64,000 nucleotides of DNA from Thermodesulfobacteriota bacterium (GTDB taxonomy: Bacteria > Desulfobacterota > Desulfobacteria > Desulfobacterales > SURF-7), in the NCBI GenBank assembly GCA_049320885.1, contig JBMORA010000044.1, positions 1 through 64,000 on the forward strand, read 5' to 3'. A program made the position numbers. The first letter of the stretch is position 1. Each line of letters starts with the position of its first letter. Shown in pieces: positions 18,001 through 24,000 of the stretch.

Positions 18001-21000
18001 TACCAATAGCGAGAATGCCGTGCAGTTGTTTCAAGAAAAACCCGGCCGATTCGATTTGGTTATCACGGACATGACCATGCCGGATTTAAATGGAGTGGAT
18101 GTTTTTGCGAAATTAACCGCCATTCGAAACGATATTCCTGTCATTCTTTGCACTGGATACAGTGATCTGATATCTCCAAATGAAGCTTATTCTATTGGTT
18201 TTAAAGATTTTTTTTATAAACCGGTAAATAAACAGGAGTTGATGACAGTGGTTCGTCGCGTTTTAGATCGAAAAAATCCTTCCGGGTGATGCCAGCAGAA
18301 TCGTCATCAGCCTTCTTCAGCATAATCTTGCGCAGTTGATCATATATCTAGTGAACTTACTTCCAGTGCATTATTATGAATGAAATTTCGTCTTGGCTCG
18401 ACTTCATCACCCATTAGAAGGGTGAAAATCGCATCGGTTTCAGCTGCATCTTCGATTTTTACTTGTAACAGGTGACGCTTGGCCGGATCCATGGTGGTTT
18501 CCCACAATTGATCTGGATTCATTTCCCCTAAACCTTTATAGCGTTGAATATTCAATCCTTTTTTACCTTCATCCACCATCAGATTAAAAAAGGAGAGGGT
18601 ATCGTTCACCGTTATTTTTTCCTTCTCCCCTTCGAAATCTGATACGGTAAAGGGAGGATGATTATATTTTTTGATTTTTCCGTTCAACATCAGTGCATTT
18701 TGATACAAATTGGAATGAATCATTCCCCGCCCTATTTTAATGGGCCCGGATTGACTTTTCGCTTTCAGGTCGACCATATCCTCTAATAATTTCTGCCGTG
18801 ATGGAGGTACAACATTCAATTCAAAAACACCGCGGTCCTCATTCCAATTCAGCTCATCCACCTGATAACCGGACTCTAACATTTTATTTTTCAACATCAC
18901 CATACGGTTCTGATCCTGAAGGAAGGTCTTGTCATTCACCCCTTCGTCAATCAACATTTCAATCAGTTTTTCATCAAAACCCCTTCTTTTTTGAGCCGCC
19001 ATTACGCCGACATATTCGGAAAGATCGGCTAAAAAAAGATATAATTCAAAATCCGTAAGTTCTTTCTGCTCTTCTCCGATGGAAACTTTCTTTTTTTCGC
19101 AAATCCGCTTAAAAATATAATCGCTATATTCTTTTTCATCTTTCAGATAAATGCCTCCTTTCCCTTTACCTACCCGGTATAACGGAGGTTGGGCTATGTA
19201 TAAATACCCTCTTTCTATCATTTCCGGCATCTGCCGATAAAAAAATGTCAGCAACAAGGTTCTGATATGGGATCCATCCACATCCGCATCGGTCATGATA
19301 ATGGTTTTATGATATCGGATTTTATCAACATCATATTCCTCGGTACCAATTCCCATTCCCAGGGCCGTAATGATATTTTTAATTTCATCGCTTCGCAAAA
19401 TCTTATCAAATCGGGCTTTTTCTACGTTTAAAATTTTTCCTTTCAGGGGTAAGATAGCTTGAAATCTTCTGTCTCGCCCTTGTTTGGCGGATCCGCCGGC
19501 GGAATCTCCCTCCACCAGAAAGAGTTCTCTTTCAGCCGGATCGGAATATTGACATTCCGCCAGTTTACCCGGCAAACTAGCATCAATCAGAGAACCTTGG
19601 CTTCTGGCCAAATCCCTTGCCCTTTTAGCAGCATCCCTTGCCCTCGCCGCTTCCGCCGCCTTGGCGATGATTTTCTTTGCTACAACTGGATTTTCTTCAA
19701 GATAACGGCTCAAATGGTCATTTACCAATGATTCAACCAGCCCTTTTACTTCGCTGTTGCCGAGTTTTGTTTTGGTTTGACCTTCAAATTGAGGGTTTTT
19801 AATTTTAATGCTGATGACGGCTGTTAATCCTTCCCGAATATCCTCTCCCCCAATTTTTACTTTCATATTTTTGGGGATATTACCGTTATTGGCGTATTGA
19901 TTGATCGTCCGGGTTAACGCCGCCTTAAATCCAATCAGATGAAATCCACCCTCAACTGTATTGATATTATTAGCAAAAGAAAACAATCTCTCATTATAGG
20001 TATCATTATATTGGACCGCCACTTCGATTTGTACATCATTTTTTTCACCGGCGATAAAAATCGGTTCATGAAGGCTGGTATGGGATTTATTGATGAATTC
20101 CACATAGGACAACAGTCCGCCTTCATACATAAAATCATTTTTTTCATCGGTCCTTTCATCTTCTATGATGATTCTGACACCCTTGTTCAGAAAAGCGAGT
20201 TCCCGACATCTCCGGTTCAAAATTTCAAAACTGTAATCATTCTGATTCATGATCCCCATGTCGGGGCGAAAATGAATTTTGGTTCCCCTTTTCTGGGTTT
20301 CACCGATTACCTTTAATTCCGATGTTTTGGCGCCTTTTGAATAGGTCTGATAATGGATTTTCCCTTTTGAATACACCTCAACTTCCAAAAATTCGGATAG
20401 GGCGTTTACCACCGAAATACCAACCCCATGCAATCCACCGGATACTTTATAAGAATCATTATCGAATTTCCCGCCTGCATGTAATTTGGTCATGACCACT
20501 TCCAGGGCGGGTACATGCTCTTTTTCATGGATCCCCACAGGAATTCCCCGACCATTGTCTTCGACGGTGATGCTGTTGTCCGTATGGATGGTTACCCGGA
20601 TGGTATCACAAAATCCGGCCATGGCCTCATCAATGCTGTTGTCAATGACTTCGTAAACCAGATGATGGAGCCCTTCGATATCGACATTGCCGATATACAT
20701 GGAAGGTCTCAGGCGTACTGGTTCCAGCCCTTCCAGCACATCAATACTATTTTCATTATATTCGTTTTCGTTCATCATATTTTCATCGGCATGATAACAC
20801 TTAAAAAGGTTTGGTCATCTTTTCCGGCAATAATACATGGATTTTCTTTATTTTTTATATACAGTGTCACGGTATCGCTATTGATATGAGACAGTGCATC
20901 AATGAAAAAATACGGATTGAAGGCAATTTCTTCTTCATTAAACGGATAAGTGATGGTCATATCCTCTTTCGATTCACCTAATTCCGGGTTTGCGGTGGTG

Positions 21001-24000
21001 ATGGTCAATTTGTCGTCGCCGAATTTGAAAATGACTCCTTTATATTCGTCGGAAGTCAGGATCGACATGCGTTTCAGCATCATCTTAAAGTCCTGTTTGT
21101 TGAGTTCCACCGTATTTTTACCGCTTATATCCAACAGTGTTTCATATTGAGGGAAATCTCCTTCCAGCAGACCGAGAATAATGGTTTCATTTTGCTTTTT
21201 GATGATGAAATGATGGCTTTTGATACCGATTTGGACATTGCCTTCCACATCGAGGAATTTACTGACTTCATTAAGTCCTTTTTTCGGTATGATCACGCTA
21301 TCGCTGAAACCATCGGCGGGCTCACCCCCGGAAAACAGACAATCGACTTTCGATAATCTTTTTCCATCCGTAGATACCATTCGTATCATGCGCTGATTAT
21401 CCAGCTTGATCCATTGAAAATGAATGCCGAGGATATGTGCCCGTTTTTCATCCGAAGCAGCGCCGATCATGACGGCTTTTTCGATCATTTTTTTAAGGTC
21501 AATCGAGTTGATTTCAAATAAAACCACATCGTCCACCAATGGTATTTCGGGAAAATCATCCGGATTGGAACCGACAATATTGTATTCAACGGTATCATTC
21601 CCGATTTTTAACCATCGGTTTTCCACTTCCGTCAGGATGATCTCGTCTTTTGGAAAATTTTTTACAATCTCAAACAATTTTTTGGCGTTGATGGCGATAA
21701 CACCATCAATTTCGATTTCAGCAGGATAAAATCCTTCAAAACCGGTTTCCAGATCCGTGGCCGCCACTGAAATTCTTGAATCAGCCGATTTAACCAAGAC
21801 GTTTTCCGTCATGTTGAGATTGCTTTTCCGGCTGGTAATGCCTTGAATTCTGGCCAGAACATCAATTATATCGCTTTTTTTGATTGTAAATTTCATACAA
21901 TATCCCAACGGTTAAGGGTGTGTTTGAACAAATACGGATCGGATATATGAGAGTTACTGAATAATAACTTACCGGCAAAAGATCAATACCAAAAAACGAG
22001 TCGATAACTACCAAAAATTATATTTATTTTTCTATTTTTGTAAAGAAAGGATAATAAGAGCTGTCAATAAACACTGAATTTTTTATAACTATATTTAATT
22101 TATACAAATTATTAAATTTTAGTCCATATGAAAAATTGTCAATCACCGATGATTTATCAACAGGGTTTTTCAGCCTGTTCACAACCTCCTGTTTATGAAC
22201 AAGCCATATTTCATATTGTTGACAAAACAAAATTTCATCTTTCAAGGTTGAATAACAACATCAATTCGTCGGTTTATAGCCTGCCCTTCTTCATTTTCAT
22301 TACTGGCAATGGGTCTAGCCTCGCCATAGCCGATCACCTCAATCCGGGTTGGTGAAATGGTGGAATTGGATATAATATATTCGGAAACGGCTTTGGCCCG
22401 TTCCTCCGATAATGTTTGATTGGTTTTATCGCTGCCCCTGCTGTCTGTATGACCTTCAAAAACAATGCGACAACCGGGGAACTCATTGATAGCGCTGATG
22501 GTGCGATTCAGCAAATTGACATATTTGGGTTCGATGGTGGCTTTCCCGATTGGGAACGAAAGACCGTGAAGCCGGATAATAATATTCTCTCCATCCAGTA
22601 AGACCTTGGCTTCGGCAGGCGAATACAACAATCCGATCCGGTTTATTTTGTTTTTCCTGATTTTTTCTTGCTCCACTTTTGACTGTAATTTATTTTTTGT
22701 ATTGGATAATTGATTCAATTCCTCATTTATTTTCATCAGTTGATTCTGGGCATTGTATATTTCCGTATCTTTTTGCGCCAGTTTATTGAAATATTCATTT
22801 CGATATTCTTTCAGCTGTTGTGACATCATAAGTTGGTTATTTTTTAATTTTTTTATGTTATTAATAATATTATTTACAGAAATTTCCATTCCCTGATCGA
22901 ATTTGGGATCGATATCCAGTTCGAGGCCAATTTTCCGAAGCGAGTCCTCCAAATTCAACATAATCGATTCGATGGATTGATCCGTATCATCCATTTGTTT
23001 TATCGCTTGATAAAGATAAATTGCGTGGTTGGTTTCATAGGCTGCCTGGTCGGCGATTTGAGGCGCTTCGGTTTGATCGTAACGGTTTGCGCGAAAGAGA
23101 GATTCTGATTTCATTGCAAGTTTACGGGCTTTTTCGTAGGTCAGGGGAGCATAACTTTTTACGCCCATATCATCCGCTTTATCCAGTAATAACCACACAT
23201 TTTGAAGGTATTGACTTTGTATGGAAAATAATTCTATTTCACGATATATTTTTTCCGATTCCGCCGCTGTTTCTTTGGCTTTTTCCATATTATCATCTTC
23301 CAGCTCGGCGGCTGCTTCATGGAAAAGATCTTCCGCTTCCTTCCATTTTTCAATTTCATAAGTCGGGCCATTAACCTTCAGACAATCCTCTCTGGCCTTG
23401 ATGATGGCGGAAAAAAAATCAGCAGCCAATGAAACGTGCTGGAGGGCTTTTTCAAAATTGGAAATGGAATCATTCACCTGTTGTCTGATTTCGGAAATAT
23501 CATCGCCGTTATCGTAACTCGCTTTTGCATCATTGTAGCATTCCATACCGGCTGCAAAAGAAGCAGGGGAATAGATATCCGCTTTTGCTTTTAAGGCGGA
23601 CTTCATTTTCTCTTCCACACTGGCGAACAAGGTTTCCCGCGATAACGGTGTGGTCGCCATACCCGTATTCGCTATCCAAAGGATCAATAACACCCCAAAA
23701 AAGACTTTCAGAAGAAAGAAGTGATCCATGCAAGGCCGGTTCATGCAATCCTCCCATTTATTCCCAATCAATGAGCTGGTTTTCATTATAGACTGAGTTT
23801 GTCTGAAAACTATACGATAATGAGTTAAAAAAGCTGAAAAAAAACCCGCAGTCCATTGCAGGTCAGCGGGTTTCTTTTATTAATGAAATTCAAATTTTAC
23901 CAGGAATGTAAAAATTTGGTGCCGGAGGCGAGAATCGAACTCGCATGGACTTGCGCCCGGAGGATTTTGAGTCCTCTGCGTCTACCAGTTTCACCACTCC

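Follow-up and report, generated by a model that had tools for sequence, protein, structure and literature searches.

Order-wide absence of RecG and RecF in Desulfobacterales and a putative UvsW/D10-type helicase as candidate RecG stand-in

Neither recG nor recF was found in any of the 201 searched genomes of the order Desulfobacterales, free-living sulfate reducers, and a chromosomal SF2 helicase, here termed H, may be a RecG substitute in most of the order. Nearly all bacteria are described as having RecG, whose main role is still argued. A whole free-living order (genomes of 2 to over 8 Mb) and about a dozen related groups without RecG amount to natural repeated knock-outs. New here are the mapped empty recG site and H as candidate stand-in, tied to recG-less genomes outside the order. 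The reading favoured here, tentatively and at a probability of roughly 0.45, is that RecF was lost early, that recG then became easier to lose, and that branch migration is provided by RuvAB, RadA and, in many genomes, resident H as a non-obligatory stand-in.

Absence of recG and recF and the emptied sites

The genome (G000; 5.61 Mb, 68 contigs, 98.24% complete) that contains the window, i.e. the whole analysed stretch of 64,000 nt, had been described in a preliminary account as devoid of RecG and RecF. This is borne out: with all 20 candidates scored, the search for RecG tops out at Mfd with 385.6 bits against a cut-off of 659, and with all 71 scored, that for RecF at SMC and RecN with at most 30.4 bits against a cut-off of 172. 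Phylum-specific RecG and RecF HMMs, applied with --max to every six-frame ORF of at least 60 aa of this genome, returned only Mfd and other SF2 motifs in the case of RecG, and only RecN, SMC and ABC ATPases in the case of RecF. The N-terminal wedge half of RecG was not found in the genome either: the first 300 residues of 23 phylum RecGs match the Mfd gene only, with two short matches. RecA, RecO, RecR, RuvA, RuvB, RecB, RecC, RecD, RecJ and RadA all score above their cut-offs. The described retention of RecA, RecO, RecR, RuvABC and RecBCD stands, except that RuvC is represented by a match below cut-off (107.9 of 163 bits). UvrD-type helicases, a RarA-like ATPase, RNase HI and an intact PriA are likewise retained.

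Within the window, the four bases ATGA are common to dnaN and gyrB (Table 1), which leaves no room for recF at its normal place, just as had been claimed. The four-gene adjacency of a dnaA-dnaN-recF-gyrB origin operon was not found here, with dnaA residing on a separate contig (C43); dnaA is also absent from the 1.9-4 kb upstream of dnaN in all six named loci of the order. The spacer upstream of dnaN, whose A+T content is matched by 4 of 16238 same-length windows of the genome, is a possible replication origin. Six of seven named DnaN relatives, 46-81% identical, are Desulfobacterales records, which fits the assignment to this order, and in all six dnaN immediately precedes gyrB. All seven sampled order genomes fall on one branch. 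Outside the order, gyrB comes directly after dnaN in 20 of 30 phylum genomes, and the arrangement dnaN-recF-gyrB occurs in 4 of 30.

Table 1. Features of the dnaN-gyrB window, and the helicase H gene and empty recG site elsewhere in the source genome (G000)
Feature	Location	Strand	Remarks
dnaN, DNA polymerase III beta clamp	20775..21896	-	373 aa; TIGR00663 256 bits, cut-off 138
gyrB, DNA gyrase subunit B	18340..20778	-	812 aa; TIGR01059 974 bits, cut-off 882
Empty recF site	20775..20778	-	ATGA, overlap of dnaN stop and gyrB start
A+T-rich spacer	21897..22241	.	345 bases, 72% A+T, upstream of dnaN; two relaxed DnaA-box-like 9-mers; candidate replication origin
OmpA-domain protein	22242..23786	-	occupies usual dnaA position
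AEP-TOTE primase / ResIII helicase / PLD fusion	4461..7598	-	helicase part of mobile type, distantly related to helicase H, outside the H clade
Helicase H, stand-alone SF2 helicase	C35:18753-20159 (outside window)	-	469 aa
Empty recG site	C54 (outside window)		between purM 13363-14487 (-) and hom 14726-16111 (+)

Across the order, RecG was sought as a TIGR00643 match above 659.4 bits (five candidates scored per genome) and RecF as a full-length TIGR00611 match above 172 bits (nine candidates scored per genome). With best scores of 402.3 bits for RecG and 56.9 bits for RecF, the latter covering only the N-terminal Walker A part (profile positions 1-123), both are absent from all 201 genomes, seven of which consist of one contig. 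In 200 of the 201, the recG search yielded a single match at E<=1e-40, which serves as internal control and is read as Mfd by a family scan of the source genome. Hence, the loss of both genes described for the whole order holds in every order genome searched, but neither is peculiar to it. The loss of recF is nearly phylum-wide, with recF kept in 28 of 301 phylum genomes and in 4 of 37 other order-level slots, while 12 of these 37 slots lack recG in at least 80% of their members. The recG states on the tree need eight changes, seven of them forced by starred branches. Each recF-bearing genome (28 of 28) retains recG, which is also retained in 148 recF-less genomes; counted by slot, this nesting is not significant (0/12 vs 4/25, p 0.28).

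RecG was cut out cleanly from a neighbourhood in which the row recG, aminotransferase gene and hom lies next to a divergent purM. This arrangement is intact in G423 from a sister slot. In the order genome G057, purM and the aminotransferase gene lie about 150 bases apart, the aminotransferase being 68.6% identical to that of G423, and in G000, G042 and G194 purM adjoins hom. Among 19 recG regions of distant slots, purM is the divergent neighbour in 5 and hom lies downstream in 6, with sister-slot G423, G248 and G437 among those that keep these neighbours. The carB-purF interval was rejected as the empty site: carB lies just ahead of recG at 7 of 28 loci, but no genome ties carB to purF via recG, and purM-hom fits better. 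No RecG remnant was found at either purM-hom or carB-purF.

Helicase H as a candidate stand-in

The SF2 motifs I, II and VI of H are intact, with G140, K141 and T142, D223, E224 and H226, as well as Q423, G426, R427 and R430 invariant in 40 of 40 rows. For the N-terminal domain (model pLDDT 92.5), the top two of 48,161 chains are T4 UvsW with Z 9.2 (rmsd 3.5, 81 aligned) and Z 9.0, followed by the next fold at Z 7.1 and by XPB at Z 6.5 with 55 aligned; a profile of this domain gave no useful match among PDB sequences and PHROGs. In a putative DNA-binding loop of this domain, basic residues prevail at positions 44, 50 and 53 (31, 33 and 34 of 39) and aromatic ones at 45 and 54 (37 and 32 of 39). 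Over the whole chain, Foldseek connects H with UvsW at E 5.7e-22, and residues 13-469 align to 1-431 of a phage gene annotated as D10 (hhalign probability 99.91, 28% over 409 columns), the partner being the orthologue from Serratia phage Slocum rather than D10 of T5 itself. The best whole-chain fold is XPB (6P4F with Z 28.5, rmsd 4.1 and 389 aligned; human XPB with Z 30.7), and the best sequence-level matches of whole H are XPB proteins as well, while H reaches only 84.3 bits against the 610 of the XPB family NF045503. The helicase core of E. coli RadD matches residues 112-465 with Z 26.4; H scores 79.6 bits against the 720 of RadD/YejH (NF053632), and the alignment stops at RadD 366. Taken together, sequence and model suggest that H may be a UvsW/D10-type SF2 helicase, for which branch migration and complementation of recG are predicted.

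A search with the single H protein of the source genome detected H in 88 of 116 order genomes and none in the other 28, nor in 88 of 114 recG-less genomes outside the order. A re-test of 17 such genomes with an H family profile, including one-contig G265 and three-contig G057, revealed no member in any of them. Outside the order, the H clade occurs in 26 of 114 recG-less vs 2 of 176 recG-bearing genomes, the latter count being a floor since the recG-bearing genomes other than G326 were searched with the single protein only. As a control, a Ski2/HelY-like helicase of the same genome is found in 32 of 114 vs 45 of 176 and shows no tie to recG. At the slot level, resident H is present in 3/13 recG-poor vs 0/25 other slots (p 0.034), and in 2/12 vs 0/25 (p 0.10) once the order that defined the query is left out; several of the recG-less slots are kin of the source genome, from which the query was taken. 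Three separate recG-poor lineages have H as a resident gene, passed on mostly by vertical descent. Resident copies sit among housekeeping genes, and several sporadic copies, including that of recG-bearing G474, among phage or mobile genes. The idea that the recG-bearing member of slot O33 is without H is ruled out, as this genome (G326) carries a resident copy next to mltA that is split across two contig ends. Close relatives of H are TOTE fusions and phage genes, and no gene, such as one for a nuclease, was seen to recur as a neighbour of the 30 plus 12 copies inspected.

Other stand-ins were considered and rejected. In E. coli, priA helicase mutants suppress recG defects. A helicase-dead PriA as compensating change does not apply to the source genome, whose PriA has all domains and intact motifs. 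RecQ is absent there and occurs in two of five order genomes, true RadD in none of five tested, and the Ski2/HelY-like helicase, found in 11 of 11 order genomes, was discarded for its distribution outside the order. The preliminary account had remarked that a replacement was lacking; H is now proposed, as a candidate only.

Possible routes to the loss of RecG

In E. coli, deletion of recF or recO rescues recG uvrD, recG radA and recG rep (PMC10870727) and also recG radD (PMC7470958). RecF would have been lost first and early, with RecOR left to load RecA at gaps. As RecF loss in E. coli takes away much of the load of toxic joint molecules cleared by RecG, RecG would here have become easier to lose. 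Branch migration would then be left to RuvAB and RadA, and H, probably acquired from phages, would add to it in about three quarters of the order and in two further recG-poor lineages. The protein would attach to branched DNA via the basic and aromatic loop of its UvsW-like N-terminal domain and use ATP for Holliday junction movement, fork regression and the removal of D- or R-loops, as a helpful rather than obligatory RecG stand-in. The order-wide recG loss with its internal control, the emptied site and the skew of H toward recG-less genomes count for this reading. The lack of H in many recG-less genomes, the weak slot-level statistics, the resident copy in recG-bearing G326, the XPB-like fold of the whole chain and the retention of RecO, by which RecA loading at gaps presumably continues, count against it. 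The rescue of recG lethality by recF loss, known from E. coli, can now be tested as a rule of evolution. Conceivably, although we rather doubt it, a phage UvsW/D10-type helicase was domesticated at least three times in sulfate reducers, each time displacing RecG, which was then deleted, in a phylum primed by early RecF loss. If true, this would amount to non-orthologous displacement, in cells and more than once, of a near-universal fork-repair enzyme by its analogue from phages.

Incomplete assemblies, or divergent genes that escape the profiles, can practically be dismissed as the cause of the absences. Most genomes are metagenome bins, and the large searches scored just five to nine candidates in each, yet Mfd was still detected in 200 of 201, although its match is far weaker than that of a true RecG would be. 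In addition, the seven one-contig genomes give the same result, the two ancestral sites have closed, and the unfiltered phylum-specific HMMs detect neither gene in the source genome, which largely refutes this idea. Quite improbable, too, is a single early recG loss in the phylum with later regain by transfer, which would make the repeated losses only apparent: the constancy of purM and hom as recG neighbours across distant slots and the matching empty site in the order oppose it, even if the RecG proteins from O12 and O27, sister slots of the order, sit on long stems (0.91 and 0.47) in a poorly resolved tree without outgroup.

A serious competitor, which we nevertheless hold to be doubtful, dispenses with a dedicated replacement. 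RuvABC, RadA, UvrD, RarA and RNase HI would be enough in slow, anoxic growth after the loss of RecF, and H would be an independently kept accessory whose tie to recG loss reflects kinship and shared habitat. The source genome indeed keeps RuvAB, a RuvC match, RadA, UvrD-type helicases, a RarA-like ATPase, RecJ, RNase HI and intact PriA; moreover, all 17 re-tested recG-less genomes are without an H-family gene, slots O5, O19, O26, O32 and O36 lost recG with no H found, and the lineage-level p is 0.10 without the own order. Residence and mostly vertical descent of H in three separate recG-poor lineages, its place in the structural group of two known RecG stand-ins and the lack of enrichment of the control helicase argue for a role of H instead, and slow anoxic growth as a cause is itself conjectural. 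Lineages with neither RecG nor H imply that RecG-type activity can be dispensable altogether. It is unlikely that H acts like XPB or in mobile-element defence (unwinding of 3'-tailed DNA, excision repair or a TOTE-like conflict role) rather than in branch migration, which would leave the loss of recG unexplained. The XPB matches in whole-chain fold and sequence and the kinship with TOTE fusions and phage genes would agree with such a role, whereas the isolated N-terminal domain is nearer UvsW than XPB, the XPB family cut-off is missed by far, and no constant partner such as a nuclease accompanies the 30 plus 12 copies.

Comparison with known systems

The preliminary account knew of no paper on these losses, which is only partly right. 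PMC1193525 lists RecF as absent from 29 of 117 genomes and RecG as absent in Mollicutes, Chlamydiaceae and Desulfovibrio vulgaris, in print since 2005; no paper on a clade-wide loss was found among open-licence full texts. As here, RecA, RecOR and RuvAB are kept in those genomes while RecG and/or RecF are gone, and one sulfate reducer is listed for RecG. The difference lies in one free-living exception there as opposed to 0 of 201 genomes of an order and about 12 more groups here, along with an empty site now mapped and a possible substitute. A cellular UvsW/D10-type helicase was likewise not found in any open-licence full text.

E. coli RadD (YejH), a partial RecG back-up according to PMC7470958, has a related helicase core; H aligns to RadD 1-366 only and has an N-terminal domain that RadD lacks. 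Archaeal, eukaryotic and mycobacterial XPB provide the best whole-chain fold, yet H remains far under the NCBIfam XPB cut-off and its N-terminal domain is nearer UvsW; XPB of M. tuberculosis does not unwind 3-way or Holliday junctions, as stated in PMC3353954. T5 D10, reported in PMC5180179 to branch-migrate 3- and 4-way junctions, falls outside the H clade on a long branch, but is of about the same size (~460 aa), and H has end-to-end homology with a D10-annotated phage gene. T4 UvsW (PDB 1RIF, 2OCA) is a functional analogue of RecG that complements some recG-null defects (PMC3778716). It is a phage gene with 16-19% identity, whereas H is chromosomal and vertically kept, and is known here from sequence and model; both share the SF2 core and the same N-terminal domain fold, in which H carries its conserved basic and aromatic residues.

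recG and recF in the order and the phylum

In G000, the genome that contains the window (5.61 Mb, 68 contigs, 98.24% complete), the sole strong recG match is the RecG paralogue Mfd, which serves as internal control; it scores 385.6 bits, the cut-off being 659 (20 of 20 candidates scored). The recF profile matched only SMC and RecN at no more than 30 bits against a cut-off of 172 (71 of 71 candidates scored), and unfiltered HMMs built on RecG (28 rows) and RecF (4 rows) sequences of the phylum itself retrieved nothing further. RecA, RecO, RecR, RecB, RecC, RecD, RuvA, RuvB, RecJ, RadA and RNase HI were found above cut-off, while a RarA-like ATPase matches below it. 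The preliminary description had counted RecA, RecO, RecR, RuvABC and RecBCD as present, which holds except that RuvC lies under both family cut-offs and is therefore regarded as diverged. PriA looks intact and hence no helicase-dead suppressor is evident.

Neither gene was found above cut-off in any of 201 Desulfobacterales genomes (74 families, 120 genera, each at least 90% complete, 7 single-contig), with five candidates per genome scored for recG and nine for recF, whose best match (56.9 bits) covers an N-terminal part. Exactly one recG-profile match at E≤1e-40 occurs in 200 of the 201, at most 402.3 bits and thus at the level of Mfd. With this control, the evidence that both genes are missing from the order, in the sense of not being found in the genomes searched, is strong, as had been claimed earlier, and an artefact is barely conceivable.

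Neither absence is specific to the order, which corrects the earlier framing. In a phylum draw of 301 genomes, 11 of them from the order, recG was detected in 176 (E≤1e-128) and recF in 28; recG is retained in each of the 28 recF genomes and occurs alone in 148, and 125 carry neither gene. All 25 chosen recG-less genomes gave a single recG match with all candidates scored, and all 28 chosen recG-positive ones two or more. The 37 slots, presumably orders, were rebuilt from the draw's round-robin and checked against displayed family codes. recF is confined to four slots, and in 12 slots 80% or more of the members lack recG. The recF-first nesting holds for every genome and is not significant by slot (p 0.28). 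On a species tree of RpoB, RpoC and four ribosomal proteins (3352 columns, LG+G4, quick search) that took in 39 of 60 sampled genomes, recG requires eight changes, seven of them forced by starred branches. RecF loss is ordinary; one survey gives 29 of 117 genomes without RecF, and RecG as missing only in mollicutes, Chlamydiaceae and Desulfovibrio vulgaris (PMC1193525).

As a side observation, RecG of the sister slots O12 and O27 (loci L119, L121, L210-L213) and of L120 keeps the helicase motifs, is the phylum's most diverged and falls below the family cut-off, possibly reflecting relaxed selection preceding loss.

The former gene sites

As described before, dnaN overlaps gyrB in the window at the usual place of recF, the two genes sharing the four bases ATGA. 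Of the seven named relatives of DnaN, six come from Desulfobacterales records. Since gyrB comes directly after dnaN in 20 of 30 non-order genomes, recF in 4 and another gene or a contig end in 6, the empty site is the norm of the phylum. The position upstream of dnaN is taken by an OmpA-domain gene and not by dnaA, which is found on another contig (Table). dnaA is likewise apart from dnaN at all six named order loci (L164-L169), and adjacent in many other phylum genomes. The cumulative GC skew of the window's contig has a broad trough at about 24 to 39 kb, and no turn is seen on the dnaA contig; possibly the origin was retained beside dnaN when dnaA relocated.

For recG, purM is divergent from the gene in 5 of 19 recG-positive regions and hom lies downstream in 6, with an aminotransferase between in 4 of these. 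The full arrangement purM, recG, aminotransferase, hom occurs in G423, whose slot shares a starred clade with the order. Among five order genomes examined around purM, G057 has purM directly divergent from an aminotransferase 68.6% identical to that of G423, about 150 bases apart, and purM adjoins hom in three (G000, G042, G194); neither neighbour lies within 1.5 kb of purM in G072, nor was either found in six recG-less genomes from other slots. No recG remnant was found in G000. Because these neighbours are common to distant slots, inheritance with repeated loss is favoured over regain of recG. The latter, a historical question compatible with the other readings, draws on a RecG tree with poor resolution, no root and long stems in the sister slots, and appears rather improbable.

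Location of features in the window and on other contigs of G000
Feature	Location	Strand	Remarks
AEP-TOTE primase/helicase/PLD fusion	window 4461-7598	-	conflict-system gene; TOTE-type relative of H
gyrB	window 20778..18340	-	812 aa; above family cut-off
dnaN	window 21896..20775	-	373 aa; above family cut-off
Spacer upstream of dnaN	window 21897-22241		72% A+T; two relaxed DnaA-box-like 9-mers (22154, 22193)
813-aa protein, phosphatidylserine-decarboxylase-like gene, Lgt-like membrane protein	window 24420-29019	+	first without NCBIfam/Pfam match; looks like a single operon
H (SF2 helicase)	C35:18753-20159		469 aa; adjoins thymidylate-synthase-like gene
dnaA	C43:30380-31699
Ski2/HelY-like helicase (L082)	C55:45735-47849	-	DSHCT domain; in 11/11 order and 77/290 other genomes
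AddA-like helicase-nuclease, upstream 887-aa partner	C58:8741-14508	+	partner without NCBIfam family; on top of complete RecBCD on C29
DISARM-like (DrmA-, DrmD-like) and NERD helicases	C61:21184-43273		clustered; below family cut-offs
RuvC	C66:20216-20746	-	107.9 of 163; 81.2 of 100.65 (family cut-offs)

A stand-alone SF2 helicase

After a survey of helicase motifs in G000, a single stand-alone SF2 protein, H, was left unexplained; it is present in 88 of 116 order genomes (E≤1e-90). Its predicted model (pLDDT 92.3, 40-row alignment) resembles XPB 6P4F over the whole chain (Z 28.5, rmsd 4.1, 389 aligned), RadD in the core only, and UvsW with a Foldseek E of 5.7e-22. For the isolated N-terminal domain, which carries conserved basic and aromatic residues, the two best of 48,161 chains are T4 UvsW (Z 9.2 and 9.0; the better match, modest in Z, has rmsd 3.5 and 81 aligned), followed by an eIF1-like fold (Z 7.1) and XPB (Z 6.5, 55 aligned). 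Matches among 50,697 phage records, 24-30% identical, include one gene annotated T5 D10 and another, from a Bacillus phage, that bears the note 'UvsW helicase' and adjoins a Holliday-junction resolvase gene; the D10-type protein aligns with H end to end (probability 99.91). Several close relatives (P0006, P0009, P0033 and others) have 760-840 aa, and their match to H is broken into two segments, the pattern expected of an inserted domain, for instance an intein.

When the G000 protein was searched against the 290 genomes outside the order, strong matches (E≤1e-90, a threshold picked after viewing the list) occurred in 19 of 114 recG-less and 1 of 176 recG-positive genomes. In a 46-row tree built from part of these and of 15 weaker matches, seven further recG-less genomes fell inside the H clade; recG-positive G216, G379, G452 and G218 and recG-less G443 grouped with TOTE fusions, and recG-less G222 with phage genes. 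Weak matches in frames above about 700 aa were counted as fusions, only G447 and G218 of these being placed on the tree. A profile search of 18 genomes added recG-positive G326, where H is split across two contig ends and adjoins mltA as in its slot-mates. The final tally is 26 of 114 recG-less against at least 2 of 176 recG-positive genomes, compared with 32 of 114 and 45 of 176 for the control Ski2/HelY-like helicase.

Three lineages have H as a resident gene: the order (76%), slot O11 (10/11) and slot O33 (all nine recG-less members plus G326). Their copies are mostly monophyletic and sit amid housekeeping genes; sporadic copies (G241, G347, G487, G450) and that of recG-positive G474 adjoin phage or mobile genes. 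As genomes are kin, counts by lineage matter: 3 of 13 recG-poor against 0 of 25 other lineages have resident H (p 0.034); once the order itself is left out, the counts are 2 of 12 and 0 of 25 (p 0.10).

Possible compensation for the loss of RecG

Loss of RecF would reduce the RecA joint molecules formed behind forks. In E. coli, according to three studies, recF or recO deletion rescues recG uvrD, recG radA and recG rep, not recG dam (PMC10870727), as well as recG radD (PMC7470958) and rarA ruvB recG (PMC8735627). The remaining joint molecules could be handled by RuvAB and RadA, and in the three lineages a phage-derived UvsW/D10-type helicase might add RecG-like junction migration and loop removal. 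We give this combined reading, with H as a putative RecG-like helper where resident, a probability of roughly 0.45. The preliminary description showed no replacement; H is now put forward as a candidate, which is not required, since it is missing from 28 of 116 order genomes and an H-family profile found no member in any of 17 re-tested recG-less genomes without H (all candidates scored). These gaps speak for a plausible alternative in which no dedicated RecG replacement exists.

Taken together, the absence of RecG is solid and should surprise fork-repair specialists. Events in which a phage analogue takes the place of a core gene are known. Among open-licence full texts, none was found on clade-wide repeated recG loss, the empty site or a tie to a cellular UvsW/D10-type helicase; the earlier statement that a paper search gave none is not quite right, in that RecG absence in one sulfate reducer, the D. 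vulgaris of PMC1193525, is already in print.

A role of H unrelated to RecG is unlikely. A result that speaks against the combined reading is that M. tuberculosis XPB, a structural relative of H, fails to unwind three-way and Holliday junctions (PMC3353954). The putative RecG-like role of H is modelled on its phage relatives: D10 unwinds three- and four-way junctions through branch migration (PMC5180179), and UvsW complements some recG-null defects (PMC3778716, PMC12746101).
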